A stretch of DNA of 64,000 nt from assembly GCA_000091205.1 (NCBI GenBank), contig AP006490.2; one strand, 5' to 3'. Shown in pieces: positions 1 to 59,976 of this stretch. Positions within the stretch are counted from its first letter, which is position 1; every line of letters starts with the position of its first letter. The position numbers were made by a program, and so were the translations under genes. Origin of the DNA: Cyanidioschyzon merolae (Eukaryota). The notes below the pieces were generated by a model that was given only the letters and a program-made list of their open reading frames with translations, had not been told where the DNA came from and ran no database searches.

Positions 1-1380
1 TCGGCCTCCTGCTATCGGCTACGGCTTCCCTCTGTACACTTCGAGTTTGAGAGGCAGCCCCAGAAAGTTGGATCGCGTCAGTTCCGCAGGTATCGTTTTC
101 AGCACCGCACATCGTCTGATATTGATGGCGGCGCTCAAGTCTCGGTTCACGAACTCCATGCATGCTCTGCATCTGGCTGAACGCATCCATGAACGGATTC
201 CTAGAACTCGTGTGCACTGTTCCATTTGCTGCTCTGTCAGCTCTCCGTGCTTTTCTATCGCCGAAGCGCTCGCTGGCTTCTCTCCAGCTCGACCTTATGG
301 GGTGTGCGCCTCAGGTCATTCGTTCTTTTTTTCATGAATGCACTTGTTGATGACTTCAGATGAGCACCTTCACAGAGCGAGAAGGAGTTGCGGAGGGGAG
401 ACGAGATGTCCTCCGTCCCTCGTGTGTCAAAGTATGCTGAAAGCTAAAGCGATTCTGCCAGTGCAGAGAACATTGCGTTTCACAATAGAAAATACTCCTT
501 CGATGCGGTTGAAGCATGGCGAGTATATAGGAATCAAAAGCAGGTCCTCTCTCCGACAGAATCGGCAAAGGCTCCAACGCAAAGGAAATGATGAAATACC
601 ACACTGTCCAATAGAAGAACGTTGCCAAACCTGCAGGGGAAAGTCTTTATAGAATCGACGTAGGGGTGCTGTTGTATGCGCCTTCCGGAGGAGCGAAACT
701 GAGACCGCCAAACGAATCCTCTGCGTCTAAAACAGATGACGGTGTCGGTCTATTCGAGTTCGATCGTACATACAACACGCGCCTTATCCGCGAATACCCA
801 AGTACGCTCTGACCCCATCGCGCGAAGCAAGTCTCATCGACCGAAAAAAACAAATCGACGTCCTTGTGCATCATACTCATCGTGACGTTCCAGGAACGCT
901 GTCGTTCCGATGTCGGTGGAAACTGGCGCTGCTTGAACTATGATGCATCCTTTGCGACTGCATCTCAGTGATTTCAGGACCCCGCGAACAAGCTGGGGAG
1001 AAACAGAGGCGCCAGTGGTTGCTACGATCGTCGCTTTTGCTTTACGTGAGATGATCAACGGGTCGTTTTCCACCATTGACTACAAGCAGTCTTCGAGAAT
1101 ATCGGTTTCTGGCACGGAGCGCATATACTCGTTCGTTTCATTGTTCCATACTTATCTGAGTACTGTGGTATGACTGACCTCCAGGAGGAATGCAGTCCTC
1201 CTTGCTTTGTTCAGTAAAGAATGTATCTTAAAAGCAGTTCGTCTACGGTCCCTAGGATATATTGCATAGTGATTCCCATCTGTTATACACTGCGAAAAGG
1301 CACTCGATTCCACGTAGCACATGTGAAACAGCATTGAGTTGAAAAACGATAACGAGTAGCTATGAACCAAATTGCATACT
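1..1380 (-). mobile_element. Decayed TnpB/Fanzor-like element, copy A. The window start removes about 75 bp of its 3' end. Five consecutive minus-strand ORFs in shifting frames, 1076 down to 19, indicate a frameshifted gene of about 350 aa.
   Basis: Three regions align at about 75-80% nucleotide identity with copy B2 (29170-30670) and B1 (27000-27255): 994-1100, 1100-1370 and 1-230. The C-terminal peptide carries the TnpB hallmark motif. Confidence 0.55.
19..225 (-). pseudogene. TnpB/Fanzor-type C-terminal fragment: a Zn-ribbon followed by a DxNAAxNI RuvC-III-like motif.
   Basis: Translation reads 'CTRVLG...CRACMEFVNRDLSAAINIRR'. This matches the IS605 OrfB/TnpB C-terminus pattern CxxCG...CxxCG..DRDxNAAxNI..RRG. 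The upstream frames are broken. Confidence 0.55.
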
Positions 1381-2677: not shown

Positions 2678-2833
2678 GTGGTGCACAAAAAATCCGTAGC
2701 ATGGTGCGATGCGAGCGAGCGCAGCACCCAGGAGATACAGCAGGCGAATGTGCCGGTATTCTCGCCCGGCATCCGCGTCCGGCAAGAATAAAAAACGAGC
2801 TCAAATCGGCCATGCACGCGAGATACTAGTCCT

Positions 2834-3907
2834 TCACCTTCCGAGCGCTCTGCGTAAGGCGAGTCCAAGTTCGGATGGCGTCTGGACAACATGGGCGCCT
2901 GCCTCTCGTAGAGCCTGCACTTTGCTAGTGGCAGTTCCGAGGCCGCCGCTCACAATTGCACCGGCGTGACCCATTCGTCGTCCCGGCGGTGCCGACAAAC
3001 CCGCAATAAACGACGCGACAGGCTTATGACTGGACTTTTCGCGGATAAATGCAGCAGCCTCTTCCTCGGCCTGCCCGCCAATTTCCCCAATCATCACGAT
3101 GCCGTCCGTGTTGTCGTCCTCAAAAAAGTACGACAGACAGTCGATGAAACTCGTTCCGTTGAAAGGGTCCCCGCCGATCCCAATACAGAGCGACTGTCCG
3201 AGCCCGGCAGCGGTCGTCTGTGCAACCGCCTCATACGTCAGCGTCCCCGAGCGAGAGACAACGCCGATTCGCCCTGGTTGCACAATCGACGTCGGCATGA
3301 TTCCCAGTTTGCAACGTGCACCTGGATGGAGAATACCCGGGCAATTCGGTCCCACGAGACGCGACATCTGTGTGCGTTCAAGCCGTCGCTTGATTCGCAC
3401 CATGTCCTGCTGGGGTATGCCCTCTGTAATTACGACAATAAGAGGAACTTGCGCGTCGATGGCTTCCTCGATTGCTGCTGCGGCGGCCGGCGGCGGGACA
3501 AAGACCACGCTCGCGTTGGCACCGGTCTCTCGCACCGCTTCCGCGACAGTTCCAAACACCGGAAGACCCAAGTGCTTGGTGCCCGCCTTTGAAGGTGAAA
3601 CGCCGCAAACGATCTTTGTACCGTAGGCTATTGCTTGTTCAGAGTGAAACGTACCGTGTTTGCCAGTGAAGCCCTGTACGAGAACCCGGGTCTCTGGGCT
3701 CACAAACGGGGACGGCTTCCCGCGGAAAACTTGTTCCGTGTTCTGTTTGGTCGATCGCGCCTGATGGGTTAAAGTCCGGTACACGGCCAAACCGGACACG
3801 GGAAGCTGCGCCCAGCGCCTGGTCCCGCGTTCGAGAAAACGCAACATGCTGCAAGGACTCTGACCGTAAACGCTGAGTTTCCCGTGAAGCAAACGTAAAG
3901 CGTGCAT
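2834..3907 (-). CDS. Succinyl-CoA ligase (ADP/GDP-forming) subunit alpha, with an N-terminal presequence.
   Basis: Matches the CoA-binding and CoA-ligase motifs: '[14 protein letters not shown]', 'PNCPGI', '[12 protein letters not shown]' and 'GHAGAIV'. Full-length colinear match to SCS-alpha across 357 aa. Confidence 0.9.
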
Positions 3908-8236: not shown

Positions 8237-11200
8237 GTGGCGAAACGGCGGCTACTGCAGCGGTCCATTCCGAACTGCAATTACTTCAACGCATAGCAGA
8301 CTAGAATGGAACGGGTCCGCTTAGGTGACCCGGGCGACGACATTTTAGACCTATGCGAGAATAAAATGGAAAGATGTCAGCTTCATGAATTCTGGTGTTT
8401 ACGCGAACCCATAGGCCTGCTACCAGGATGATGAACACCGGCCGGTTGGCGCTCTTTCTGTCAATGCTTTCTGGTCTCCTGCATCGTATCTCCGATACGA
8501 AATACGCTGGACTGCCGTCTCTCGCAAGTTACGCTGCCAGCAGTCGACGGGTATTCGTGGCGGCACGGGAGTCCCGATTTCGCTGCATGGGGCGGTTGTC
8601 AACGCTTTTCATCCAGAGTCGGAAGTTGCAATCAGCGTTTCTCTTGCCATTGGCATATTCCTTGGACACATCCCCGGTACGCCATCCGCAGCGTCGGCAC
8701 TCGGCTGGCGTCAGACGTTCGGTGGAGTCCGCCAGAACGCCCCCTTCGATGGCCATCCTGTGGCTCGTCCACGCTTCCCTCAGCGTCCGGTACGTGCACT
8801 GGACGGGTACAGAAGGCTCTGCTCGATACCCAGTTCCGTTGACACAACCGGTGCCGCATCCTCTGATCACGCGCTCCTTCCACGCGATCCCGACGGTGAG
8901 TACCCTGCCTGCTGCGTGAAACAGAGGATCTGTGGAACGCGGTGTTGTCTGTGGTGAAACAAGTACCAGAAGGACTATCCAGACTGGAGACGAAACCGAA
9001 AAGCTTCGCTGCGTCTATGCTCCCGCTGTACAAGCCGGTGACGCACGCTCCACACTGACACCGGTCGCTCCGACGACTACAGCCCGAGCCCAGGACCCGT
9101 TTCCATGCAAACGCAAGTGGCTGAGGCCCCTGGAAGCGCACCCCGCGAGCAGCCCCATGCTGGTGTGGAATGGCGTTCCATCTGTGGCCGCACTGAGCGT
9201 GTGGAGGATTCGTCCTTCCAATGGATTCGGTTCATTGGCGTTACAAGTGCAGTGAACATGCGGCATGAGCTTGTGGAGCATCCGTCATGCGACGGCGTTG
9301 CGTTCGTTTTCTTCGCATGGCTCCAGCGGCACTACTCTGGGGCGCCCGCGAGGTCTCTCGGGATCGAAAGATCGAAAAGCTCAAGAACGGGTGATTCGCG
9401 CACGCTACGGGCAAGCGGGGTAGAGGCATCGAGGCGTGCACGTATGGACTGGGTGATGGCATCGAAGGCTGATTCTGGGGAACGTTCACCGGCTGGGTTT
9501 CGAATGATGTTGATTCTGGTGACGTAACGAAACCGGCGGTGGCGATGCGTCGAATGAGCCACACGGACACGGCATCAGAGAACTCTGAGACTACCTAGGA
9601 ACGGGAGAGCCCTCATTGCTGTACTGGAATGTCGAGGCTGGGCATCTAGAAAGAGTCTCCGAACAAAACGTAAGGCTGGAGCAGAGCGTGCAGTTCAGCG
9701 TTCCACGCGAATCTGACGCAAGTGTTTTTGCGGCCTTCTTCTGTGCGTTCGCTTGCATTATCCCTTGCGCCAAGACGATAGCGACTGTTGCAACGAATCC
9801 AAATATTTTTTCGATCGTCGAGTTGGCAACGAAATGCAGATCATAAGTGCCTACCAAAGCACCCTGCTGTAGAGCATGGAGTCTGCTGGATCGTGGACAG
9901 CGTCGAATCCAAGTCTGGCACTTGAGCAGCGCAGCATACGGACGGTGTTCGTTGGACACTGTCAAGAATTCACGTCCTGGGTATCGCAGCAAGATCAACC
10001 GCGCGTGTTTAGTTCAAACCCAAGAAAAGATGGGTCACTCGGTAAGCGATTCACGTCCTGTCATAATCGGAAGGCGCAGCTGCCGTGCTCGTCCCTTGTA
10101 CCTGTTTGACTGGTGCCGAGGGTTCGCATTCATGAACGCCTAACAAGGCTTCCAAAGGATTGCTGCAGGCCTCGTGGGTATCGGTGCTTGACTGAGAGCA
10201 TACGGGCTCCGTATCGAGTATTGTCTAGATGTTGAAGATTCGTGCACGTTCGGCACCAGAATCGTCCGATGTTTTTGGTTCGCATTGTACAGAAAACAGC
10301 ATACGTGGCATGGATACAGCCTAATTTGATGTTATCTGGTGCTCCAGTCGGCATGTCGTCTCTGTATCATCCGGCACAAGTCGAATTACTGAAGCAGGTT
10401 ACCCGGCAGCATGCTCTGTCACGGTTTCCGGTATCGCAACGTTCCCCGCAGTTTCTCTCGCGTCTGACGCACGCCCGGCACCAGGTTTTCAAGCATTTCA
10501 GTGCATATATGTGTATGTATGTATGTATGTGTGAAGGCCTCTCGGTCAACGCATGGGCCTGCATATGGATCAGAGCGCTTCACCGAATGATCTGCCATGG
10601 GCACGAAACCCAAGGCATTTTTGGTCTGTGGCACCCAGCTCAGACCAGAATATCACTGGGGCACTTATGAACGCGATGTGTGGTTTCATTGCCCGTGCCA
10701 CTGGCTGCTCCAGAGTGCGTTCCGCAAATACGCTTTGTCCATCATCATTCGACAGTCTATTTGAAGACATCTCTCGTATAACTGCTGCCACAGGTGCGGT
10801 GGCTCGCGTCGTCATCATGCGCTCCCGAGGCACAAGTTTCGCCTCAGGACGCCTCGACGCAACCTGAAAAACGCTTACTGAGCATCCTGCAGAGTCGCTG
10901 GATCGCCCGAGTTGTCCGCTATCCAGGGGCAGCAATTTTCATGGAAAATCACCAGAGGCCTCAGCCGAGATACCATTGGCGTCTCTGGATGATTCCGTTA
11001 CAGGCCAACGTGAGTCAGTAAGAGAAACCTCACACTCAGCACGGCAACACGTCGCAGGCGCGCACTAGTCGCGGTAGCCAATGACATGTTCAATGAACAA
11101 TCATCCGAAAACTTCGCATCGCAAATCTCAAAGTTGTTTCAGATTTTCTGAGGTATCTACCAGCGAGCCCTGCTACCTCGTCATGCTCAGAATCGATAAG

Positions 11201-13384: not shown

Positions 13385-14380
13385 TGCGCGGGGCAGGGAG
13401 CATCCACGAAGCTGTATCCTGATGGATCCGTATGAGCGGGTGTTTGTGGAACTTGCTCGCCGTGGGGCGTATGGATGCTTTGGAACGTACCCCAGTGCAG
13501 CATATCTCTGTGTCTGTGTCACGTCCGTGACTAGGAGCATCCACGAAGCTGTATCCTGATGGATCCGTATAAGCGGGTGTTTGTGGAACTTGCTTGCCGT
13601 GGGGCGTATGGATGCTTTGGAACGTACCCCAGTGCGGCATATCTCTGTGTCTTTGTCACATCCGTGACTGGGAGCATCCACGAAGCTGTATCCTGATGGA
13701 TCCGTATGAGCGGGTGTTTGTGGAACTTGCTCGCCGTGGGGCGTATGGATGCTTTGGAACGTACCCCAGTGCGGCATATCTCTGTGTCTGTGTCACGTCC
13801 GTGACTGGGAGCATCCACGAAGCTGTATCCTGATGGATCCGTATAAGCGGGTGTTTGTGGAACTTGCTTGCCGTGGGGCGTATGGATGCTTTGGAACGTA
13901 CCCCAGTGCGGCATATCTCTGTGTCTGTGTCACGTCCGTGACTGGGAGCATCCACGAAGCTGTATCCTGATGGATCCATATGAGCGGGTGTTTGTGGAAC
14001 TTGCTCGCCGTGGGGCGTATGGATGCTTTGGAACGTACCCCAGTGCGGCATATCTCTGTGTCTTTGTCACATCCGTGACTGGGAGCATCCACGAAGCTGT
14101 ATCCTGATGGATCCGTATAAGCGGGTGTTTGTGGAACTTGCTCGCCGTGGGGCGTATGGATGCTTTGGAACGTACCCCAGTGCAGCATATCTCTGTGTCT
14201 TTGTCACATCCGTGACTGGGAGCATCCACGAAGCTGTATCCTGATGGATCCGTATGAGCGGGTGTTTGTGGAACTTGCTCGCCGTGGGGCGTATGGATGC
14301 TTTGGAACGTACCCCAGTGCGGCATATCTCTGTGTCTTTGTCACATCCGTGACTGGGAGCATCCACGAAGCTGCGTCATG
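13385..14380. repeat. Tandem satellite of about 7.2 units with a 137-bp period (one 138-bp unit).
   Basis: The 'atccacgaagctg' unit start recurs at 13401, 13539, 13676, 13813, 13950, 14087, 14224 and 14361. Units are 93-97% identical with mosaic variant sites (gagcgg/aagcgg, gtctgtgtcacgtcc/gtctttgtcacatcc). Confidence 0.95.
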
Positions 14381-14956: not shown

Positions 14957-16096
14957 TTGGCAACGGTGCGTCCAGCCAAGCGGCCGCGGCTGCCGAGCGA
15001 CTCGACGGCGCCGCTGCGAAACGCAAGGCTACGCATCGACTTGTCGAGTCTACTAAGAGGTATGCATATGCAGGGGGCCTTTGTTGCTGCCGGGAAACCG
15101 CCTTTCAGGATTCACTTAGTGCACGAGAAGCAGCCAAAATTTTTGCACGGTGCTGGTGTGAGGTATAGCGCTCGATCAACTCGTTGGTATCGTTGGAGTC
15201 TACGGTGCACGAGTTCTGAATCGAGGACGACGAATACTGCTGCACCTACCGAGAAACTGGGGTTCATTGGCGGCACTGGGAACATGGGGTCGTCCATCAT
15301 CAAAGGACTCATTGAAGTGCAAGCACTTAGCCCACAGCACATCCTGTGTAGCGGTAGGGATGCTCAGAAGCTGGAACGCTTCTCAATTGAGACCGGTTGC
15401 ACCGCGATGACCGACCTTGCAACGCTCTGTGCCCAGTCGACGGCACTTTTTCTCTGTGTAAAGCCTGCTCAGTGTCAGGCAGTTCTGGAACGTATGGTAG
15501 CCGAAGCCGGCGAGAGTCTGAACGGTAAGCGTCTGATTTCGGTAGCAGCTGGGGTCCCGGTTTCGGCTCTGGAGCGACCACTGCGCGTTGAAGCCGTGGA
15601 ACAGTGCCGGTGCCGGGTACTCCGCTGCATGCCAAACGTGTTGGTTCGGCACGGCCTAGGTGCTATGGCCGTATCACGGGGAACGACTGCAACGGACGAG
15701 GATGTTTCATGGGCGCTGCAGTTGCTCGGGCGCCTGGGCCTGGTTGCCGAGCTCGAGGAGTCTCTCATGGACGCCACGGTGGCTGCCGCTGGAAGCTCAC
15801 CTGCATTTGCGTTTATCTTCATGGAAGCGCTGACGGATGCGGCGGTGAGAGAAGGTCTACCACGCCACATCGCACGCAGTTTTGTGGCGCAGACGCTTTG
15901 TGGTGCCGCCCAGATGGCTCTTCGGGATTCAGATGCTCACTTTGGAGAACTGCGTAACCGTGTCGAGTCACCGGGTGGCACCACAATCGCTGGCTCATGT
16001 GCATTGGAGGAGAACGGATTCCGCAAGGCCGTGATTGCCGCAGCAGCCGCTGCAGCTGCCAAGTCTCGCGCGTTCGCGGACCGCTTCTCCGCGTGA
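14957..16096 (+). CDS. proC: Pyrroline-5-carboxylate reductase with an N-terminal extension of about 90 aa.
   Basis: 'LGFIGGTGNMGSSIIKGL' (NADP-binding), 'RCMPN' and 'SPGGTTIAG' (P5CR signature). Colinear over about 280 aa. Confidence 0.85.
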   Translation: MATVRPAKRPRLPSDSTAPLRNARLRIDLSSLLRGMHMQGAFVAAGKPPFRIHLVHEKQPKFLHGAGVRYSARSTRWYRWSLRCTSSESRTTNTAAPTEKLGFIGGTGNMGSSIIKGLIEVQALSPQHILCSGRDAQKLERFSIETGCTAMTDLATLCAQSTALFLCVKPAQCQAVLERMVAEAGESLNGKRLISVAAGVPVSALERPLRVEAVEQCRCRVLRCMPNVLVRHGLGAMAVSRGTTATDEDVSWALQLLGRLGLVAELEESLMDATVAAAGSSPAFAFIFMEALTDAAVREGLPRHIARSFVAQTLCGAAQMALRDSDAHFGELRNRVESPGGTTIAGSCALEENGFRKAVIAAAAAAAAKSRAFADRFSA

Positions 16097-17283
16097 TCCA
16101 CAGGGCGCCGTGTACGTATCGTGGACGAAAACCTTGCACACGCGCACTAGAGCCCCCTTCAGAGCGCGAGCCGCGTGCAAAGTCGCCGGCGTGGCGATGC
16201 CCTAGCACTGAAGTCCGATACACAACGAGGGACGGGCGCTCACCAGACAAACAGATAGCCAATGGTACATGCTTCGACACTGGACTTGAAGCACTGGACG
16301 CGATGCGTCTGCTTCTTTCATGCGTTTGCGAGACACGCACATCCGCACCTGTCTGTGAGCACAGAGACATCTTGCATGCAACAGCTGGAAGCTGCCGTCA
16401 CCGGGGCTCATGAATGGCTCTGCTCCACTGCCTTGATGTGAAGGTGCGACGACGAGTGAAGCACGCTTGTGGAATGGACGTGCGGTTGTTCTGCTCCCAT
16501 GAGCGTCTCAAGGAATCAGCGGTAGCCGAGTCGCCTGAATGGCCACCGTTTGCGCACTTCGGGGCTGTTCGCCACGAATGTCTGCAGTCGATGATCGCAA
16601 CGGTGCGCTTACGAATACGTATGCGTATCCCGAAACCACATGCCCTTTGCTCCAAGCTTCGAGAAACATGCAGGTATCGAACACATGATTTCCTCGGTCA
16701 TTCCGGGGCAATGCGAGGGCGATGTATGTATCAATGCCCCAAATCGATGCTTTCATCGACGGAGACGGTGGCACGAACGACCAAAAAATCCTAAACAAAG
16801 ACGCCACGGATCGCTCGATGACCTCGATGACGACTGGCAAGGCGAGACGCCTCAATGTTGTGCAGGCAACATGCCTGGGCTTCATCAGACGATGCGTCAC
16901 CCAGGCTGCGTCCGTGTTCAGCAACATGGCGTCCATACCGAGTTCTTTTCCAGGTGAACAGGATCCGGCACTTTCAATCCGTCCGTTCAAGTTATGCACA
17001 TGTGTACGCGGGATCTCTGAATTGCAAACAGGTCGCGGTAAGCGCTGCACCAGTACTTGCAGTGTGACGTCGAGCATCGTTTACGCATTTCCCCGTGCAT
17101 GCTTGCTGATTCATCTCCTCTGACGAACCAATGAATGAATGAATGCTTCTTTTTGAATCGATCATCATCGTCGTCGTCATCGATTGCAGCGAGCGAATGA
17201 CCAGCGAGGTCGTTCAGGGTAGCACTGAACGAGCAGCTGCGAATCCAGCAGCATTGGCGCACTTTCGTCATCAACGACACCTG

Positions 17284-25858: not shown

Positions 25859-26939
25859 TACCAGAATTGTACAGATATATTCAGAAAAATTCGAAATTGT
25901 GTCCGTTCATCTTGCGCGCAGCGCAGCCGCTTCTTTTCCACAGCAGCGGCTACGGTCGCGCACCCCACGCTCCGGATGCGCCTACACGGTGTTTGGCGAA
26001 ACGGTGATCCGAGGCCATCGATCCTCGCCCGAATTCCAAGTTCCATCATCCATGCTGCTTCTCGGATATACTGATTACCTTATGGGTTCTATCCTTCGCC
26101 GAGTGCCTGCCTTGCTGCATCCGTGATAGCGCGTATGCCGCTGGTGCGGATGCATGACGGAGACTGTACGGCTTTGCCGTACCGCTGAGGGCGTCGACTC
26201 GAGGTGGGATTCCCCTCACACGGGGTCGGGATTCATGATCATGCTGGGAGCCTGCGGCAGTGCAAAGCGATATCCTAGAAGGCTACCACGATCAGGGCGG
26301 CGCCTAGACGCAGCATACCCGCTGCAAGTCTCAGAATCGGCTGCGTTACGGACAGGCTGCTCAGATCGCACTACAGCACCCGCTACCAAATGGGAACGTG
26401 AAGCACTGGCGTGGCAGGCTCGTCCGGCTCACGGGACCGCACCCCTTGAAGGTAAACTTTCGAAAATAGGGGAAGCGTTTCCCATTTTCTAACGTTTACC
26501 ATGCGGGTCGAACGAACTTGTTATATCGTTACTAGTAAGTTCTTAGTTTGTGGTCTTTGTTCTATATAGTGCGGTCGAGATGCGCACCTGCATTTCTGGT
26601 AGGCGTGAGATACGACGCGCATCTCGCCGTTGAAGGGGAACGCGATCCTGACCGTTAGCGTGCCGCTCTAACTTACAAGTTGGATCGACGTTGAAGTGAT
26701 TGCAAAGCATAGGCTTTCAATTCAATTGTATTTCAACCCTCAAGTGAGTGTATTCAAGTGCTTCTTCGCGGTTTATAGCAGACGCGTTCAAAGCGCGTTC
26801 GTTTTCGAATGTGAAAAAGAAAAGGTATAGACATGCAAGTCGAGGATTCTGGAGGCCCGATGTCGCCGGATTCGACAGCAAAAAACGAGAAAAAACCCGC
26901 ATCTCGCCTGCTGCCGGACGAAGGAGAGCATGTGACGTA

Positions 26940-27306
26940 GTAAAAAGAAGAAGGTAGATAGAAGAGAAAAGATGTTGCGTCGACGGGACGATGACGAGAG
27001 TGTAGTGGCACAGAGGGCACGCAGTTCAGGAACCCTTGCAATCGTGAGTTCCACCAGAGGCAATGAATGCATGGAGCTCGTGACCCAAGACTTTAACGCC
27101 GCCATCCAGACCAGACGAAATGTGGTGCTGAAGACGAGATCCGAGACGCTGAAGCGAGCCAGCTTCCTGGGAGCATCCTTCTGGGGTCGAAGTGTGCATG
27201 CAGAAATTGAAACTGATAGCAGGTCACGGGTCAAAATAGGCAGAGAGGCGTCTGCGGGTGGATGCGCTTTTACCCTCCATGGCCGTGAAACGTTGTTCGT
27301 TTCGCT
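26940..27306 (+). mobile_element. 5'-truncated copy B1 of the TnpB/Fanzor-like element: C-terminal coding remnant plus conserved 3' terminal block.
   Basis: 27000-27255 aligns with the minus strand of 1-230 and with 30468-30600. The 3' block 27245-27306 ('gcgtctgcgggtg...cgtgaaacgttgttcgtttcgctga') is nearly identical to 30600-30664. Confidence 0.5.
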
Positions 27307-27322
27307 GAACGTGTTTGTCTGA
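26972..27322 (+). pseudogene. Degenerate TnpB/Fanzor C-terminal fragment. The ORF runs on into the non-coding 3' block.
   Basis: 'ECMELVTQDFNAAIQTRRNVVLKT' is homologous to 'CRACMEFVNRDLSAAINIRRCAVLKT' of copy A. The Asp of DxNAA is kept, the cysteines are mostly lost, and there are frameshifts upstream. Confidence 0.5.
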
Positions 27323-27854
27323 CAGAAGCCGTTTAGAATGTCCAGGGATCCCCGATTATGTGATGGATATCAGCAGTCGGGAAAGCGTTCATCGTCGCAC
27401 CTATATCCAAGTTCCTTTATCTCGATGTGGGTGATCTGCGCTGCTGCGGCTGTAGCTGGCAATCCAGCCGCAATCTATGGATTCGCGTGATGCATTCTGA
27501 CTGGGCATGTTGGCATTGTCACGAGGTCCAGCGCATAGAGCGTGTAAATGCGAATACAATGATCAAGTACGGACTGCCATTGGTGCAGAATTGTCTGGGG
27601 TAGAGATCGGTCTAGGTATTGTACATGGAGCAGGTAAACAGCGACCCAAGGATCAAGTATGAATTGGAACTCTTTACGGAAATGTCTGGGAGGAACTCCG
27701 TGACTCCTTTGCACTGTGGCTCTCTATCTCTCCAAGATTCAGGCCTTCGGAATGAAGGCATGCGTAAGGTGCTCGATTCTGTTCGGCTTCTCGGTCAGCG
27801 AGGAGAAGGTCTTACGACAAAGGCATCGCGATAGAGCCGCCTCTCGAGATGCGA

Positions 27855-28871
27855 TTACCCAGCCTCATGGGGACAAAGACCGCGGCCGTAGACGCTAGCC
27901 CTCCGTGTGATCCGCTCTAGCACGAACGGTTTGCAGTCCAAATCAACGATCGTATGATCGATCACAAAGCCTTGCTCGTCAATTCGGATGAGAATGGAAC
28001 AGTCGTTCGCAATGCACGCCAAGTTGTACAGTGCGTAAAACTGATCAGACCCGGGCTCCGATGCAGCGCTCAGTTCGATATGCGACCAGATGATCGACTG
28101 ATTCTGGACAAGCCAGATCGCTGCTCGTCTGTCAAGAGTCTTGCCCACGAACCAGCTTAGGCGCTCATCACGACTCGCTCCACTGCGTAGGCGTCTACCA
28201 AACGGCGTTGAAAGCAACCGTCTTCTTTCAAGCTCGAATAAACGCTTCACAAGCGCATGGTCACACGAGTGAAGTTGCTGAACGCGATGCACTCTGGCAA
28301 GCGCGGGCGATGTCTGGATAACGCGCGCCATCCAGTCCACTAGACTCGATCCGGCTCGAAAGCGCTGCATCGCTTCAGAGAGGCATTGCTCTCCGTGCAA
28401 CCAGTGCAGGCGGAGGAGTTTTCGCAGCTGTTGCGGGCCTTCGAGAAGTGAGCGCAGCGCGCTGCGGCAGAGGTCCAGATCATTTGCAAAGAGATCGCAG
28501 GCGCGATAGGAGAGACGCTCAAAGCTACCGCACCTCTTCGGTTTGATTTCGATAGTGAGAAAAGGAACTCGTTCGGCACCGTGATCGGAGACCGCCATTG
28601 GCGTCAGCAGATTCGGCTGGTACTCAGCGAAATCGTTCACTCGTTCTCTTCGTACGGCGAACGGTTCGAAGATACGTTCAACAGCGCGTCGAAGGGGCTC
28701 TGAGTCCAGAGAACGCTCCAGCCGCAACCGCAACACCAGCCTACTGTCCCTCGGCGACGTGAGAAGCAGAGCAGATGAGCCGCGAGCAAGCACTTTCCAG
28801 AGTTGCTCTCTTCTCTCAAGGTCTGCGTGAGCTTCTTCATAAGCGTTGCTTCCACGTTTCGAACCACTCAT
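27855..28871 (-). CDS. Inositol-pentakisphosphate 2-kinase (IPK1).
   Basis: 'LTIEIKPKRCGS' (IPK1 'EIKPKWGFL' motif), 'DCSILI' (IPK1 'DCSIMI') and 'IVDLDCKP' (IPK1 'IIDLDLK'). Confidence 0.6.
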   Translation of the reverse strand: MSGSKRGSNAYEEAHADLERREQLWKVLARGSSALLLTSPRDSRLVLRLRLERSLDSEPLRRAVERIFEPFAVRRERVNDFAEYQPNLLTPMAVSDHGAERVPFLTIEIKPKRCGSFERLSYRACDLFANDLDLCRSALRSLLEGPQQLRKLLRLHWLHGEQCLSEAMQRFRAGSSLVDWMARVIQTSPALARVHRVQQLHSCDHALVKRLFELERRRLLSTPFGRRLRSGASRDERLSWFVGKTLDRRAAIWLVQNQSIIWSHIELSAASEPGSDQFYALYNLACIANDCSILIRIDEQGFVIDHTIVDLDCKPFVLERITRRASVYGRGLCPHEAG

Positions 28872-29169
28872 GAGCGCGCGCCTTAATTATAGGCATACTT
28901 TTCGGCGCAAGGTGGTCCCGTTCGTTCTGGAGGCGCACTACTACTACTGCTGCTACTGCTGTTGCTATCTTTGAACGTTGTCTATTCCACTTCTAGAAGG
29001 GTGGACATGAACCTGTTCACGGCGGCTACCCTGCAGATCAACACCCCAGTCGTTGACGTCATTACCAAAGGTCGAATACGACAACGTACGGACAGTTTGG
29101 ATACAGCCGCGCTGCTCGCTTGGTTGCTTGGCGGCGACGCGTTGAGCAACGCAACCGGCCCTCGATGAC

Positions 29170-30670
29170 GTTCTGCAGCGTGTTCCAGTCTTTCAACTCA
29201 AATTGGTTCATCCCCATTGTGGGGTATAGTAGGCGGTAGGCATCACGACGCAGTATAACCATAGATTGTAGAAGAATTGCCTGTATGATCGATTCTGTAC
29301 CGAACAGTGAAAGGAAGATTGCATTCCTCCTTCAGTGCTGTCATACAACAGGATTCGGATGGTTGACGGGCACTGAAAGGAAGAAGTATTTACGCTCAAG
29401 GCCAAAAACAGATGCTCTCGAAGAATGCGTGCAATCAATTGAAGAAATCGATCCGTGGATCACTTTATGGAAAGCAAAAACGACTATTGTAGCCGCAAAG
29501 GGCGCTTCTGTTTCTGAACAGCTCGTTCCAGTGATCCAGAAAACACTGGGATACAGTCTCAAAAAAATATTTTAGTCGGCGAATGGCCATCTTCCACCGA
29601 TATCGCAACGACACCGCTCCTGGAACGTCGCTCTCGGTATGAATCACCGCCAACTCTGTTTGTTTCCCAGTCGATGAGACTTGCTTCGGATGAAACGAGC
29701 GGAGCTTATACGGGTATACGCGGAGCAGGGCACCCGTTACGTTTCCGATCAAGCTCGAGGAGATCGACGAAATCATCTCTTCTAGCTGTAGTGAATGCTT
29801 TTCGCGGCCTCGGTTTCTCTCGTAGAGAAGGCTCACACAGCGGCACCCTCTGCGTCGATTCATTGAGGACTTTTCCCTGACATCTGGTGACGTCCTTCTA
29901 TTGGGCAACGTGACATTCCACTGTTACTCTTGCGTTCCAGCTTTTGCCAGTTCTATCGGGGAGTAGAGCTGCTTTTCATGCCTCCGAAATCTCCGTAGTT
30001 CAGCCCCTTGTAGGAGTGTTTTCGATCGAGAATAGTAATGAACGCTCCATTGGCTGAATTGCTGAGCGTTCAGCACACGGTGACAAACCGGAGCACATGT
30101 GGTTTATCTTGCAAAAAGTCGTCCTCGCTCCGGAAAGACGCTCACCCAACAGCATAAACAAGTGCGTTCATTTGAACGGTTCAAAAATCTAGGGGAAAGA
30201 TATTGATATGAAATTCGAGGATCCTGGAACGCAGTCACCGGAGGTTGCCGAAAAAACGGAAAAATCCTCTTCTCATCCAGCATCGAGTGAAGAAGAACAA
30301 GTGTCGCAAGGAGGCGAAGCGGAGATATATTCGAGAAATGGTGTTTGACGGATGGGACCTTGACGAGACTTGAATGGCACGGAGGACACGAATTTGAGGA
30401 ATGAGTTCAACCGGCGGCAATAATCGCACTGGGTTCTGGAATCGTATCGTATACCTCGTCCTCAATCTCAGGAAATGTGCGGAGCTGAAAAAGAGACCTG
30501 CGTAGCTGACGCGATCCAACTTCATAGGATAACCTCTCAGGCTCGTAGCGTGCCTGCATAAACTGAAACCGAGAGCAGCTCATCGCTCAAGAAAGGCTCG
30601 GAGGTGTCTGCGGGTGTGTATATATTTATCCTCCGCGGTCGTGAAACGTTGTTCGTTTTACTGATAACAT
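29170..30670 (+). mobile_element. Copy B2 of the TnpB/Fanzor-like element. It has full-length homology to copy A but is frameshifted. The 3' end is about 30664.
   Basis: The reverse complement of 29170-29560 aligns with 994-1370. The + ORF 'KAKTTIVAAKGASVSEQLVPVIQKTL' is a frame-conserved homologue of A's 'KAKATIVATTGASVSPQLVRGVLKSL'. 30468-30664 aligns with the A and B1 3' regions. Confidence 0.5.
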
Positions 30671-52130: not shown

Positions 52131-52961
52131 CTCTGTGGGCCGATATGTTGACCAAGCCGCCTCTTCGGAGCGCCGCCCTGTGCTATGTGAAGGCGCGCTT
52201 CATGGCCCGGTACCGGCGCTCGAGGGCTACAGAGGGCTCGCCTCCGTACCCTCCCAGATGCGCGCCACTGGTACCGTACCCGCGGACCATGTGCGTCTTC
52301 TAGGCGACGACCTCAGCGATTACTCTATCCGCTGCATACGCCAGCGCATGCTTTATAGATTTGGTAAAGGTTTGTAGAACGTGATGTTGTCCATGATGAA
52401 ACAAGTAACGACAGTAAAATCCAGGCTGGAAATCGAGTCGAGAAATCTCGATCCGTCTATGTTCCATTCGTGCAGAGCGGTGCTGCACGCTTCACTGGAA
52501 GCGAATGCTGCCATGGCCCAAGTCCAAGTCCAGGATCCTTTTGTATCCAAAGAGAAGAGACGGGCGTCTCTCGGAGCATAGTCGATGACAGGTATCACGC
52601 TGATGTTGAATGTGATGCCATTAATGACCGAAAAGAGTTGCGGGTTTCTCCTGAGAATCCAATCCTGTATTCGACTTGAAAAGTTCAGTGAATTTTCTGC
52701 ATGAGCTTGTGAACGAGTCGTCAAGGAGCTACTTTTCACCTTTCTCGTGTTAAATTAAGCGGCATGCATCGCTCTGTCTATGAGTTGCCTTGAAACAGAA
52801 AGATCGAAAACTTGAAGAATGCGTGGTTTGAGGACGCTGCGCATCAGGAAAAGAGACGATTGGACGCCTGTCCATATGAATTGGATCACGGTATCGGTTT
52901 TTCACGAGCCGTTGTTCGAGGATATCCTAAATCATCTCGATTCGGATATCGTAACGAATTC

Positions 52962-52986
52962 CAGCAGCAGCAGCAGCAGCAGCAGC
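52962..52986. repeat. (CAG)8 microsatellite.
   Basis: Direct read. It lies within the unassigned ORF 52812..53336 and encodes poly-Q in that frame. Confidence 0.9.
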
Positions 52987-53453
52987 CGCATATCAAAGTG
53001 ACCAATCCGAATAGGCGACCGAGAATTCGAAAACGACGACGCATGAGTCCCAAAGCCCTCATTGCTGCACGCGTATTGCCGAAGCTGTCCATCCGAAAGC
53101 AAGGATTCTTAGAACTCGTGCCCTCTGTAACTGAACAGTCTCGTCATGGTCCCGTCGGGCAAACCGTTTTTCTCGACAATCTCCCGTCTTCTTTTTCAAG
53201 TGCACTCCTTCGCTCTATGATCAGCGAGAAGGGCATTTTATCGTTTTCCACACTGGCATCCGACGATGAAGGCCCTCCAGGATCCCCGACTTCCACGTCG
53301 ATGCCGTTCGCTTGGATCTCTTATTTGTTCAAATGAACGCAGTTTGAACGCATCTGCGATGAACCGCAAAAAAGCGTCTGATGGCATTCGCCTAGATGTG
53401 GAACGCATTGGAGATGTTCATTCTCGAAACGCTCTGCTTCCCTGAACCAACTA

Positions 53454-54224: not shown

Positions 54225-57200
54225 GTCCTTCGATGCCGATCTCGAGTGATGGCTTGGTGATTTGACGTTCACGCTTTCGCGATGCGCTCATCGAACGGTG
54301 TGCACGAGACTTTGGCATTGTTTCACCGCCGTGGCGACAGCTGCATCGACACTTTGCAGTTCCAACTATATATGAAGTGTTACTCAATGGCTCGTGATCG
54401 CCGAATGGTTGTGCCTACATTGGTGTCGGCATGCAAGCAACCATGCATTTCCTGTGAATCGAGAGCATGCGAAGCCGTCCTGCGGGTACACCGAGCGGAT
54501 TGCACGATCGCCCGTGCGATTCCGAGGCCTTGGACGGGCCGTCCGCGAACCCGCAGCCTGATTCAGCATCGACATTCCGGAATGGTGTGGCCCGATGATA
54601 CGATCCCGTGATGAGCGAAACCTCGCGGACTGGACGCTTGGTATCAAGAACGCAACACGTGCCACCGCTAGTGCTACTGGTAATCCCGATGTGGCCGCAA
54701 TCACCACGGAGGCTTGCTGCAGAGACGCTCGTGCACCCTACAATTCGCAGTACTTCTGCCGCTACTTGTGCTGCTGCACTTGCATCGGTAACGAATCCCG
54801 GGAGCAATGCTTGCGCCCAAATGATTTCTAGGGATCTGAAATGGGTTCGACCGTACTCCATATCGAAGTTTTGTTCAATAAATGATGCGTTTGCTGGTCT
54901 GTTTCTTATCTTGCTAGAGTGCTTGTCATCGCTCATCGCTCAAAAGCACCTGTTACGAGCCGCTCCCTGGTTGTACCTGGATACCGCTGGATCACATCAG
55001 GATCGCGATGCAACACCAACAAGTCATCTGCGGTCGCCGGAAACGATCACCATCACGATGGATGCCGATGTCCATGGCGGGAGCGCAATGAAGCATGCTC
55101 CTTTAGAAACGGGTTTTTAAAACCCAATCACTGCCGGTATTACTTCTACTCAGTAGTATCGAAGCATGGAACACCGCAATGTTTGACCATTTGCCCAGGA
55201 AAATCGTTGTCTATGGAGGTGTGTATGGCGCTCCAGCCTTGATGCGTTGCAGACCCGTACCACACCAGTGCCTTTTCCTCCTCGCTACTGATTGTTTTCA
55301 TCGAAAGTGTGCGACTTTTCAGCGCAATGTCTACGGTGACTAGAAAGCGATTCCGTCGGATATTCGCGGCGTGCAAAGCCGCCGGACGCTGCGGCAGCAA
55401 GAGACATTTCCCGATCTCGGACGAGTCGCTCAAGTCTCTATTCGGAACTCGCCTGCAAGCGCTGGTGCTGGTGGAGTCATGCCCTAGCAAGCCTCTGACT
55501 TTCGATTGCCTCGCCATCTGGCGTGCAGTCAACTTGCCCTACACCGTCTCGTGTGTCCGGGTGTGTTTCACGCTCTGCGACTCTGCTAGGCTCACGGAGC
55601 GCTCTTGCTTGTGATGCGTTGATCTAGTGCGGGACGCATCGACGGGCGTCGTGCAGCATCGATTGCTGAACGCGTTGTACGCTGGCGTCGAATGAGCGGG
55701 AGTGCACCCTCTGGGAGCTGCGGTGCGTCGATTGCCGCAGACTACCACGAGACGAGGCGACGCATCGGTCATGACCTGGTCCAGTGGCTCGAGCGAGCAG
55801 GCGAAAGCACGTGTCGTGTATCCGTACAACCGAGACGATTGGCAATGCCGTCGCTGCCTCATGTACGCCAGCCAGGGATTGTCAATGGCAGCTATATCGA
55901 CGCTCTTGTGATCTCTGCGTGAAAGACGCATACGAAGCGTTCCAGCGTGTTTGCTACGGTGCTTCGAGCATCAGGATAGGTTCTGAGGCTGTCACTACAT
56001 TTCGTCGTATGCCTGCTTGCAACCATCATACCCGAATGCGGATTACACCGAGCGGTGTGAAAAATCGGGCAGTACGATATTGTCTGTCCCGGGCATTCGT
56101 TGTGTTCCCGCATTCTGGCTTGATCGAAAAGGTTCTAAAGGAATCAGGACAGCTGGTAAGCTTGCCTCCGAACCTTGTACAAATACTTATTTAACGAGGA
56201 TCGTCAAGTCGAGGTAAGCTAAAAGTGTCTTCCTAGAATAAGAAGCTATGCGGTATTGAATCTAGTCCTGCATTTCCCTGTTTCTGGGTTGCTCCCCGTT
56301 GGCGTCTTCACTCAGAAAGGCCATGAAACAGTGTACAGACGGTTTATCCTTACACTCTCTGCTCGCCCTCTTTTCGCGGGAATTTCGCCTCCTTTGTCCG
56401 GTGCTTCTTTCTCGCTCTTCTTCTTCTGCTTTACGTGGCTGGGCAGCTCTGATGTGGCCGCTACGCTCCATGCTTGTTCCCTTACCTTGAGATGCAGACG
56501 CACTGGGTAGTCGATATGTCCGAAATTCGTTTCTTTTAAGTGTGTACTTACGATTCTTCTAGGTACTTTCGTCGCCTTCTCCATCGCGAGCACGTCCACG
56601 GACAGCAGCACGGCATGACGCTCCATCTCGCATTCGGGCAGTGTATCCCCAGACCAGTCCATTGCTGGTGAAGACAGATCGAGATTTGTCAAAGAGCGAC
56701 CGGGCACGCTTCGGTGTCCTTGATCCGAACGACTCTTGTTTGGATCCACAAGCGCAGAAATGGCATTTGAAAACAGAGGAAACGCCGTCGACTAGCTTCA
56801 ACCAGGGAGATTAGCACGACACAAACCGCAGGTCACGGCGAGATGAGGCGCATGCACCTTCGCCGCTTCTCTTTGATGGAACCTGACGTGGTCCAAGCAC
56901 AGGACAGAGGATAGCGGCTAGGAGAAGCTACGAACTGCTTCGACGAAGAGAGCGTTGCTGAACAGTCCTCCCTGTTCGGCAGTTTGTAGGAGACGACGCG
57001 ATAGCATCGTTGCTGGGGGTGATAGCGTCGGGGTGCTCGCTTGACGCGTCTTTACGAGCAGCGGATTTTCCGTCTTTGACCGCTTACATCCAGGTACACA
57101 GTGTCCTCCGTCTGCCTTCTCAACGAGTAAGACGAGTACCCCGTTCCTCTTGGTATATAGGTTCCCGTTGCGGTGCGAAAGCGATGGTGTGTGTTTTTCA

Positions 57201-59976
57201 AAGCGCGACGGTCACAAGTCGAAGCGTACTTTTTTCGTTCTCCATCTGTGGCTCGTTATCGCGGCTCGCATCAACGATTCGGAAACTTCGCGACGTGTGG
57301 CTTCTTTGATCGGAATTCCGAGAGAAACCATCGGGTGCAATGGATGAACTTGAAGACAGTCCTGTACGCAGACTTTGATCATGCCTATTTTGGGTGCACA
57401 ATGTTCGAAATACGGGCAATGAAAAGGGTGCACCATCCGTCTCCTGATCATAGAATAACTGACTTGTACCAGTTAGGTCGTCTTTCGCAGAACTATAGTG
57501 CCAGTACCATGCACTTCCCACTTATATCCCCAATATATAGGATGCATTCCGTTTGTTGAATACCAGCGAGATAAACAAATAAAAACAAGAATGGCCCGCC
57601 GGCACTGGTGCTCCAGAATTCCCTGTTATGCGTATGAAAAACTTGCACCGAATCGGTGCGAAAGCATTTGCGAACGTTGCTGGCGACGGGAGGTCCTCGA
57701 CCACTGCACACCGTGCGTTCGAGGTAGCTCCCGATTGTCCAGTGTTCCGCAATCCTATTGGCATTCGCTTTCTAGAACGCCGCTCCATTTCGTGCCACGG
57801 GACACGATGCGAGGTCCGGTGCCGAAGCTGGCCTGGCAGCGATAACTCCATCAAACAAATGCGAGCATGCAAGAGTTGCGAAGCGTCCACCATACAAACA
57901 GTCGTCCGCAGGTCCTGCGATAACATCGGGATCAAGGCATTCGGCGCCTGGAAACAGGCAATGCTGCCCCGTGCCAAATCTTGCGCATCATCTGTTATCA
58001 CTAGCATTTTCTCCACAGACAAAGCATTGGCAACTGCACCTGCGTTTCCCGGAGGCACACGCGCAAGGCCAGGAATGCACCTCAGCGCCCGCCATCGACA
58101 AGTTCCAGGTCTGAAAACTCCAAAAAAGCGCATCAGGAAACTGGGGTGTCCACTCGGACACTCTCCTATAGGCGAGCTTCTTGAAGTGCGCTCATGTCAC
58201 ATGCAATGTCACGCTTGAGGTACGCACACGCTTTTCCATTTCCCAACACCGAAACGCCGCCAGTCTGTTTGGAACCTGTTGCAGTGCCTGCTATGCTTCG
58301 ACACCCCTGAACCTGGTTCAGGTCGCGAGCCCTGCCCCAGGGTACGCACGGTGCTAGGCACTGCACCGCACCTGCCGTGTGCGGTATGCACGAGGCGGGT
58401 TCAGTCCAGTGGCGTTCGTACGTGCCCAGCTTCCAGAGTACCCATACTGCACCGTCCCTGGTCCTCTGAAAGGTCAACGTCGCGAGCCGTATACCGCTCG
58501 GTTTGCCGGAGAGCACGCCGGGTCGGTGCGCTGCACCCAAAAGGCCACCGCAGCCGCAAGTGTCACACTGGTGAACGCTGCGAAGCGGAAAGTTCGCCAT
58601 CGCTCCACCGGTTCGTAGCCGTGATAGAGTCGGGCCAACGACCAACCTGCGAGCAAACCGCAAAAACCAGTCCACAGGGCTGTTTGCCGAACAATGTCGT
58701 CGCAGCGTGTAGCCGCGGGTCGCATGAGCGGAGGTCGCTCCTCAGAGTTGTTCATGGCTAGTCCCGGGAAACGAACGCGGATCACGACCGGCACCTGGAC
58801 GCAGGACAGAACTCGCGCGACAAGAACCAGGAAGAATCAGCGTAACAGAAAAGCGTCAAGTGGATGAACGTACGCAAACTCTAATGGACTCCGTCGACGG
58901 ACACAAGCAACTGTTCGAGCGCCCGTCTCTGAGGATATCGCATAGCCGAGTTTGTCTCCGCGGAGCATCCTGTGCTGCAACCAGCGTTTGGGAGCGGGCT
59001 CCGCACCCGAAGCGTCCCTGAAACGATCTTGCTCTTATAACGCTTGGAGCAATGGTGCACTAGGGATGAGGGTTCGCTGCAGCATACCCGGAGACACTGT
59101 CGTCGCTGTCCTGGTGTCCGCTCATCGAAGCACACCTAGGGTTTCAGGAACGATCCGTCGATCTTGTAGCTTGAAAAAACATGTGCTACGGGTGTGTTGC
59201 TAGGAGAGCTGGGCAGCGATTTACCCTTTGGGTGCTGCCCGGCATTTGGACACATGCCTCATGCGGTGCAGACTCGTCCAGGTTCTGCACAAGATGATTC
59301 CTGGTTGAGGTCTGTCGGAACTTGAGGGTTCCTGGCTCCTCACGAGGAGCTCACAACGCTGCCTCGACTCGCGTACGGCCGGTCGCAGAGGCGTGCTGCC
59401 CAGATGGGTCATTGTGTTCATCGTGCCGCCTGACACCACGAATATAACGTGCCGCAATCACCCCGTTTCCGGAATACTTTCCGGGCATCGAGTCGAGCAC
59501 GGTCAACGGCGCATCGACACACAGTTTACAGTCTGCTACGCAGCTGGTTACGGCAAAGCGCACTCTAAACTGCGTCCAACAAGCGGGAACAAAAGCTCAG
59601 TTTCCACGCTACCGGGCGCAGCGTCCGTCCCACGAATCCAGCGGTTTTGGGGTCTGAACAAAACGAGTACACCTCGTTTGAGCGCGTTCGTTCCGGTCGA
59701 GTCCGTAACGCTTCTGTGTATCCGTGACGTACCCGTAAGAGACCCGGCTGTTTGGATCAAAGAAAAGCTGCTGTTGCAGCTGCATCGAATGCTCACAGCG
59801 GTTCATCTGGCCCGGTACGCTTCCCGTACAGCCATGCCTGGTCTAACGACACGGTAAGTCGACGCGCGGACTTTTTGCACGGAAGCGCGCATTTCTCTCC
59901 GAGACACTTGCTTCTCAGCAAGTATCCCAGATCGGCGTATCCCCAGAGAGCTCGTTCTCAAGTTTGCGCAGACTCG

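Follow-up and report, generated by a model that had tools for sequence, protein, structure and literature searches.

What is the decayed sequence at the start of this stretch of Cyanidioschyzon merolae DNA (64,000 nucleotides, hereafter the window), whose minus strand still spells a motif typical of RNA-guided TnpB-family nucleases? A sequence-only reading took positions 1-1380 to be one gene of roughly 350 aa, inactivated by frameshifts and ending in a zinc ribbon, and left two questions: was the nuclease Fanzor1 or Fanzor2, and which transposon carried it? The nuclease is a Fanzor1 and its host a Tc1/mariner transposon. Positions 1-1351 (minus strand) are very probably what is left of a DNA transposon of the cut-and-paste type with two genes, now dead and internally deleted, in the nuclear genome of C. 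merolae 10D. We refer to this relic as copy A. The species is confirmed by the ORF of succinyl-CoA synthetase alpha (SCS-alpha; 2834-3907, minus strand), identical to BAM79805.1/XP_005536091.1 of C. merolae 10D. GC content is slightly low over positions 1-2000 (0.52), and the regions at 26-30 kb and 56-58 kb are also GC-poor.

Five minus-strand ORFs in shifting frames do occupy copy A, although they do not all have the 77-94 aa first ascribed to them. The last, at 19-225, has 68 aa: it reads MEQCTRVLGIRSWMRSARCRACMEFVNRDLSAAINIRRCAVLKTIPAELTRSNFLGLPLKLEVYRGKP, and its product ends ...CRACMEFVNRDLSAAINIRRCAVLKTIPAELTRSNFLG... The other four lie at 356-628, 427-711, 647-880 and 834-1076. Read 5' to 3' on the minus strand, the copy consists of a leader, a transposase pseudogene, a short gene-end/intergenic remnant and the tail of a Fanzor1 gene (Table 1).

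Table 1. Features of copy A and of related relics in the window (positions counted from the first nucleotide of the window).
Feature	Position	Strand	Description and evidence
Copy A, 5' leader	1279-1351	-	Matches CMe-1A consensus 786-860 (blastn, 72% identity, E=2e-6)
Copy A, DDE_3 (DD34E) Tc1/mariner-type transposase pseudogene	390-1262	-	Frameshifts and stops; Pfam, homologues, HMM
Copy A, C-terminal remnant of Fanzor1 gene CMe-1	1-319	-	About aa 611-718 of 734; in-frame stops; blastn, tblastn, HMM
Copy A, 68-aa ORF	19-225	-	Accidental open stretch within the Fanzor1 remnant; ORF list, residue alignment
Copy A, RuvC-III motif NRDLSAAINI	118-147	-	Sequence reading; CMe-1 and family alignment
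Copy B	29239-30670	+	Transposase pseudogene, Fanzor1 start (about aa 1-21+), Fanzor1 C-terminus (aa 638-729)
Copy C	26015-27319	+	CMe-1A-type, without transposase; CMe-1A 71-969, internal deletion, 2809-3084
Copy D	55359-57472	-	More divergent; transposase remnants 57472-56562; Fanzor1 aa ~440-697 at 55970-55359, 35% identity to CMe-1
Fragments F	52356-53373	-	Transposase remnant 52901-52356 (HMM 53-223) and CMe-1A 840-969-like piece 53373-53237

Fanzors were named by Bao & Jurka (2013, Mob DNA 4:12, PMC3627910), who listed for C. merolae, as one Fanzor1 family, CMe-1A, with a 3169-bp consensus and a 734-aa protein. The family comprises about 150 copies, each about 80% identical to the consensus (PMC3627910), so the rarity of TnpB-family genes in eukaryotic nuclei, which had been put forward as a reason for interest, does not hold for this genome. 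The Fanzor1 family of copy A has therefore been on record here since 2013. Taking the consensus from the supplementary file of that paper, we aligned CMe-1A 2737-3025 to window positions 319-35 (blastn, 73% identity, E=1.5e-48) and aa 628-718 of the published protein to positions 270-1 (tblastn, 53% identity, E=1e-21). Of the CMe-1A consensus, copy A retains positions 786-860 and 2737-3092 only. Moreover, a family profile built from 32 intact homologues (the ORF2 proteins described below) matched the six-frame translation of 294-22 (minus strand) at profile positions 548-595 of 609 (E=3.5e-10), with no match in copy A upstream of 294. The corresponding Pfam model, Cas12f1-like_TNB, reached the C-terminal peptide at its positions 34-60 with E=0.0018, and its 18.8 bits fell short of the 26.3-bit cut-off. 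The peptide at 19-225 is thus a TnpB-family relic, as had been proposed, and it is recognized by the family profile rather than by the curated Pfam model.

The single catalytic motif left in copy A is NRDLSAAINI. Its aspartate, D29 of the 68-aa ORF, supplies the third residue of the catalytic D-E-D triad. In CMe-1 the motif corresponds to FVNRDFNAAINI, and in the family alignment to the columns R555/D556/N558/N562, which hardly vary. The DxNAAxNI signature first reported survives here as the RuvC-III motif RDLSAAINI, in which S replaces the N of the quoted consensus. The other two catalytic motifs are gone. RuvC-I (GADPGN, CMe-1 aa 428) lies well ahead of the point where CMe-1 homology begins (about aa 611), and the RuvC-II glutamate (VDEFRTS, aa 601-607) was deleted from just upstream of the retained part. 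Both are strongly conserved in the parent family: D348 and G350 of RuvC-I are invariant and P349 nearly so, and the RuvC-II glutamate, E509, is nearly invariant (the rearranged 'Ealt', DEFRT[ST]). DPG and the shifted glutamate are Fanzor signatures (Yoon et al. 2023, PMC10711439). In total, a deletion of about 1.8 kb removed Fanzor1 codons 1 to ~610 and left the last ~105-125 codons, with stops. Given these stops and the deletion, copy A is a non-functional pseudogene fragment, and nothing in it is able to act. We also considered whether, in copies A-C, the segment upstream of the tail is a Fanzor N-terminus (ETVVKC) fused to the C-terminus; for copy A, alignment to the consensus identifies it as C-terminal sequence, TEEQMERRAKVRG.

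Zinc fingers are usually treated as diagnostic for Fanzor1, and a 'CxxC, spacer, CxxC' ribbon had been read into the peptide. The residues do not bear this out. Copy A has a lone C (EQC-TRV) and, much later, a single CxxC (CRAC); neither CRAC nor any other cysteine pair occurs at these positions in B and C. The CMe-1 consensus has ERR...DGKKR at the same positions (ERRAKVRGLL...DGKKRMEFVNRD in longer form), and the zinc-ribbon-like cysteines of copy A are decay substitutions where the consensus has Arg/Lys. A C4 finger (CxxC...CxxC) was found in none of the 32 aligned intact members of the CMe-1-related family. Since the finger is described as present in 'many', not all, Fanzors (Yoon et al. 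2023, PMC10711439), its absence does not exclude the CMe-1 family from Fanzor1. The case also calls for caution, as a short RDxNAAxNI motif with cysteines nearby in decayed sequence may mimic a zinc ribbon.

Upstream of the Fanzor1 tail the ORFs had been taken for the body of the same nuclease, and they turn out to belong to a separate gene. Their stitched translation matched Pfam DDE_3 (E=1.9e-5; 25.0 bits, under the 28.6-bit cut-off), and among 5.8 billion proteins searched there were five intact homologues (P0001-P0005, 285-302 aa), each match covering about two-thirds of the query. All five carry PF13358 (E=9e-27 to 7e-13). An HMM of these homologues aligned to copy A at model positions 1-36, 64-138, 133-179, 197-233 and 237-274, between window positions 1262 and 436. 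The N-terminal helix-turn-helix (HTH) region (YPRDRRRTAFKI...EVSHTTVLR) corresponds to the first two of these intervals, and the catalytic remnants are FSVDETCF, LLLDSVVFHH and YSPCFNRIEGVFSIVKR. The spacing of the triad is D-76-D-34-E in 5/5 intact homologues. DD34E spacing is the signature of Tc1. In copy A the triad motifs VDET, LLDS and NRIE are recognizable but fall in three different frames, and exact spacing is not measurable there. The same HMM also detects remnants in copy B (E=3.9e-17), at 57472-56562 and at 52901-52356. As the protein search gave no intact C. merolae member of the transposase family associated with CMe-1, the results suggest that the transposase persists in this species only as pseudogenes. 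When the ORFs and consensus peptides were scanned directly against Pfam, all matches were sub-threshold; with direct scores under the curated cut-offs, the transposase and Fanzor1 assignments rest on family-level profiles and the published consensus.

Copy A is not contained within 1-1380 but runs past the start of the window. A 22.5-kb metagenome contig that is 99.3% identical to the window (L001) supplies about 84 more bases, comprising ~50 nt of Fanzor1 coding homology and then ~35 nt of 3' end. There the CMe-1 protein match extends to aa 729 (tblastn, E=1e-24), and copy A ends at the same point as copies B and C. At the other end, the leader may hold a decayed 5' terminal inverted repeat (TIR) starting near 1316 (TACGTGGAATCGAGTGCC...), a low-confidence candidate based on comparison by eye with the TIR TACACTTTGACAAGTGAATTTTG of an intact relative (L007, below). 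No 3' arm matching this candidate was found. Copies A and B, screened for TIRs and target duplications of TA, gave nothing convincing, and neither was recovered for any other copy in the window. The 14-nt perfect inverted repeat at 29288/30786, considered as a TIR of copy B, has one arm inside the element and the other outside, and looks fortuitous.

At least four further relics share the window with copy A (Table 1); every reading frame is interrupted in all copies, which are mutually 65-70% identical. Copy B follows copy A without rearrangement from end to end, at ~69% identity (blastn; 1276-334 to 29239-30171, and 193-9 to 30394-30578). It also aligns with CMe-1A (869-969 to 30160-30263, and 2872-3084 to 30402-30611; blastn) and with CMe-1 (aa 638-729 to 30359-30619; tblastn). 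For copy C, the two CMe-1A blocks fall at 26015-26892 (71-969) and 26983-27255 (2809-3084; blastn), CMe-1 aa 640-702 align to 26996-27181 (tblastn), and the Fanzor1 family HMM matches at positions 554-594 (E=5e-4). Another CMe-1A 5' end follows immediately, at 27320-27422. In the six-frame translation, the family profile also picks out a relic at 55970-55149 (minus strand), within and beyond copy D, where a decayed RuvC-III region reads VPNRDLSDSSEI, and, outside the window, a relic in L001.

These copies do not share one history of loss. B and C are collinear across a deletion that differs from that of copy A: both keep the Fanzor start, and the match to CMe-1A picks up again at 2809 (C) and 2872 (B). 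Copy C, whose 5' region is of the CMe-1A type, is without transposase. The copies of the window are therefore mosaics, as noted for other Fanzor elements (Bao & Jurka 2013, PMC3627910). Since copy C shares the Fanzor deletion of copy B and yet lacks the transposase, their history involves recombination or repeated deletions, in whatever order. A, B and C end in a 3' terminus (...CCGTGAAACGTTGTTCGTTT...) unlike that of the CMe-1A consensus, and on this ground the three are a sister subfamily rather than CMe-1A proper. A consensus fold of five 3' ends (RNAalifold), made to look for the scaffold of a guide RNA (omega/reRNA), gave -15.9 kcal/mol with an unfavourable covariation term and demonstrated no such structure; the subfamily termini differ.

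Intact relatives reveal what such an element looks like when complete. In all four contigs examined (L005, L006, L007 and L009), a transposase is followed on the same strand by an ORF2 of 530-700 aa, with a gap of 20-75 nt between the two in L005-L007. The ORF2 proteins carry G(V/A)DPGRTN, VDEFRT(S/T) and KFVNRDxNAAINI....RPxxLxR, the last of which matches the window peptide. L005, L007 and L009 are bounded by inverted repeats of 23-31 nt, each flanked by TA, and are complete two-gene Tc1/mariner-type elements of ~3 kb. In L009 an open transposase frame of 304 codons (44-955) immediately precedes P0101, which, outside the CMe-1 group, is the nearest relative of CMe-1 (43% identity). By contrast, L008, from a related metagenomic genome, has the CMe-1A layout: its CMe-1-like gene is intact (752 aa) and no transposase accompanies it. 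The search for ORF2 homologues yielded more than 100, including one from Chlamydomonas euryale. CMe-1 belongs with this metagenomic family (E=8.8e-187), and P0101 is common to both homologue searches.

The family is Fanzor1 by its structural relatives. Against the PDB, the family profile matched PpFz1 (Parasitella, 9cf0, E=1.5e-19), SpuFz1 (Spizellomyces, 8gkh, 1.5e-9) and GtFz1 (Guillardia, 9cer, 6.6e-7), and reached no chain named TnpB or Fanzor2 at E<=1. The carrier points the same way: what separates Fanzor1 from Fanzor2 is residence in a eukaryotic transposon instead of an IS607-type element, and the partner gene here is a DD34E DDE_3 transposase. The CMe-1 consensus by itself found no PDB match, so that only the family profile reaches the Fanzor1 structures; the ORF2 of L007 alone matches SpuFz1 (E=1.8e-4). 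Fanzor1 proteins of the CMe-1-related family are 590-750 aa long. A gene of about 350 aa thus does not describe the ancestor, and ~610 codons, RuvC-I and RuvC-II among them, are deleted from copy A.

How do other explanations of the locus compare with a two-gene element? That the whole minus strand of 1-1380 was a single TnpB/Fanzor gene of ~350 aa, broken by frameshifts and closed by a zinc ribbon and RuvC-III, is suggested by ORFs following one another on one strand and by the weak Cas12f1-like_TNB match of the C-terminal peptide. We consider it very improbable: the upstream ORFs match DDE_3 transposases and not a RuvC fold, the Fanzor family HMM is silent over them, the ribbon is absent and the proteins of the family are far longer. 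It is harder still to credit the motif as a chance match, a conserved host gene or a prokaryotic IS605/IS607 TnpB brought in by contamination or transfer. In favour of this, the motif is short and the Pfam scores lie under threshold, yet the matches to the family profile and, over ~90 residues, to CMe-1 have the low E-values given above, and three to five diverged copies occur within the window. Frames broken by stops speak against a host gene. A prokaryotic source is opposed by flanking genes that are C. merolae nuclear genes, by nearest solved relatives that are Fanzor1 and not TnpB or Fanzor2, and by the partner gene, which is a DDE transposase; no match to an IS605/IS607-type TnpA recombinase turned up in copy A.

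The remaining alternative accepts both halves of copy A and denies that they form one element, an unrelated Tc1/mariner having by chance inserted in an older piece of CMe-1A or beside it. In favour of this, CMe-1A as published contains no transposase, and Bao & Jurka reported no TIRs for it; the copies in the window are mosaics (C being without transposase, and the deletions of A and B/C differing), and they yielded no TIRs. Such a coincidence is nevertheless unlikely. The two genes keep the same order and orientation in A, B and D, and the same layout recurs in other organisms, in four independent intact elements that TA-flanked TIRs enclose as a unit. In addition, the transposase sits at the identical CMe-1A position (860/869) in A and B, and the stretch just past CMe-1A 869 still resembles, by eye, the last bases of the transposase gene.

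A dead two-gene transposon thus remains the reading we prefer for copy A. The ancestral order would have been TA, TIR, a DD34E Tc1/mariner transposase (~290 aa), a Fanzor1 of the CMe-1 family (~600-730 aa), a 3' end with its TIR, and TA. Judging from the literature on Tc1/mariner, TnpB and Fanzor, the transposase would have excised the element and reinserted it at TA sites, and the Fanzor1 would have cut DNA matching a guide RNA transcribed from the element's 3' end. Cleavage of this kind presumably helped the element to be retained or to home, a role shown for bacterial TnpB. In copy A, frameshifts run throughout the transposase, and the ~1.8-kb deletion took RuvC-I (DPG) and RuvC-II (DEFRT).

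The order transposase-then-Fanzor1 is common to copies A, B and D. The position of the transposase in A and B, at CMe-1A 860/869, is the modestly new observation here, and it suggests that CMe-1A is a Tc1/mariner-Fanzor1 element from which the transposase was deleted. That is, the transposase would have been lost from CMe-1A rather than gained by A and B. Together with P0101, which stands behind an intact transposase within TA-flanked TIRs, this position makes a Tc1/mariner + Fanzor1 ancestor in the C. merolae lineage the most economical reading; from this ancestor CMe-1A would have arisen by losing the transposase, and copy A by losing most of the Fanzor gene. On balance we think it more likely than not that CMe-1A derives in this way from a DD34E Tc1/mariner + Fanzor1 element, with A, B and D as the reciprocal relics that retained the transposase, and that the clade as a whole (CMe-1 and more than 100 metagenomic/algal relatives) dispensed with the C4 finger and kept DPG/DEFRT/NRD. 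In the literature consulted, neither this origin of CMe-1A nor a clade-wide loss of the finger was found stated, and on mariner elements in C. merolae we found nothing beyond Bao & Jurka.

Copy A itself carries little weight: the genome has many such dead relics, and their Fanzor1 family was catalogued more than ten years ago. For transposon and genome-editing specialists, a modest value lies in the CMe-1 family gaining a superfamily (Tc1/mariner, DD34E) and intact relatives with TA-flanked TIRs. It also belongs to a sizeable Fanzor1 clade whose members are all finger-less and which, if active, would provide a natural test of whether the finger is dispensable for RNA-guided cleavage.

Among known systems, CMe-1A is the closest. 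It occurs in the same genome. Copy A shows 70-73% DNA identity to it over consensus positions 786-860 and 2737-3092 and 53% protein identity over aa 628-729, and the level of decay of the copy fits an old, many-copy family. Bao & Jurka list CMe-1A without TIRs, with undetermined target-site duplications (TSDs) and as of unknown classification (PMC3627910). Unlike that consensus, copies A and B have a DDE_3 transposase pseudogene between positions 860 and 869, and A, B and C have another 3' terminus and large internal Fanzor deletions. Because of the extra transposase segment and the different terminus, copy A is placed in a subfamily related to CMe-1A.

An association of Fanzor1c with Mariner/Tc1 has been described (Jiang et al. 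2023, PMC10530073). PUl-1 and PUl-2 of Pythium ultimum and PGv-1 of Phaeocystis globosa virus join a Tc1/mariner transposase and a Fanzor1 in one element, with TIRs of 24-33 bp and TA duplications. Among the intact relatives, L005, L007 and L009 are built in this way too. The PUl-1 Fanzor1, read by eye, keeps cysteine pairs between RuvC-II and RuvC-III, whereas the CMe-1-related family has none. With the solved PpFz1, SpuFz1 and GtFz1 this family shares profile-level homology over the REC/RuvC core, DPG at RuvC-I, NRD..A..N at RuvC-III and a DEFRT-type glutamate six residues ahead of the site of the first CxxC in PpFz1. It differs from them in having no C4 zinc finger, and copy A keeps the RuvC-III end only. 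To bacterial IS200/IS605 TnpB the likeness is a distant C-terminal motif resembling RDxNAAxNI, set against a sub-threshold Pfam score, no zinc ribbon, no IS605/IS607-type TnpA partner and a eukaryotic nuclear genome. The relation of copy A to bacterial TnpB is one of ancestry, not of membership.

Between RuvC-II and RuvC-III, a zinc finger of the form CxxC...CxxC is missing from all 32 intact Fanzor1 relatives in our alignment (A4, drawn from proteins P0006-P0110), and the CMe-1 consensus, the published C. merolae Fanzor1 protein, likewise has none at this position. The catalytic motifs of this zinc-finger-less family (DPG, DEFRT and NRD) are kept in the alignment, and many of its members are full-length ORFs that adjoin full-length transposase ORFs.

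Two further, divergent relics of this two-gene element (transposase plus Fanzor1), one of them outside the window on the metagenome contig L001, share only 29-35% protein identity with CMe-1, and a larger part of the Fanzor1 gene is left in them. These relics suggest that the element is represented in the C. merolae genome by two or more old lineages. GC content in the window is lowest at 1-2000, 26001-30000 and 56001-58000 (0.515-0.526 vs about 0.56 elsewhere), and these minima overlap transposon relics.

Relics and ORFs of the window and of contig L001
Feature	Position	Strand	Observation
Divergent two-gene-family relic (copy D)	window 55359-57472	-	keeps Fanzor1 aa ~440-697
Divergent two-gene-family relic, outside window	L001 18639-20753	-	keeps Fanzor1 aa ~124-697
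ORF in duplicated 1.3-kb segment	window 9231-8635	-	weak DDE_3-like HMM match, E=0.04
ORF in duplicated 1.3-kb segment	L001 about 16060-16656	+	weak DDE_3-like HMM match, E=0.29

The environmental contigs L001 and L002 (JGI metagenomes 3300050356 and 3300050355) match the window at 99.3% identity over 13.6 kb, a stretch that includes the dead copy A. Strain 10D therefore has close relatives in these samples, and they are possible material for empty-site comparisons. L001 stops inside a 137-bp unit that is tandemly repeated at window 13396-14373 (7.1 copies, 97% matches, no indels). It also reveals, just outside the window start, a second copy (L001 15597-16940, 99% identity) of the 1.3-kb segment at window 8351-9694; the pair may represent a further repeated element or a segmental duplication.

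In and directly after copy C, a CMe-1A-type element, both window 26015-26790 and window 27320-27422 show 77% identity to the 5' part of the published CMe-1A consensus. Copy C is followed at its 3' end, with nothing in between, by the second of these 5' ends, and elements thus abut head-to-tail there. In the published description, the first 635 bp of the CMe-1A consensus are made up of a separate repeat, TE-N2_CMe (Bao & Jurka 2013, PMC3627910).
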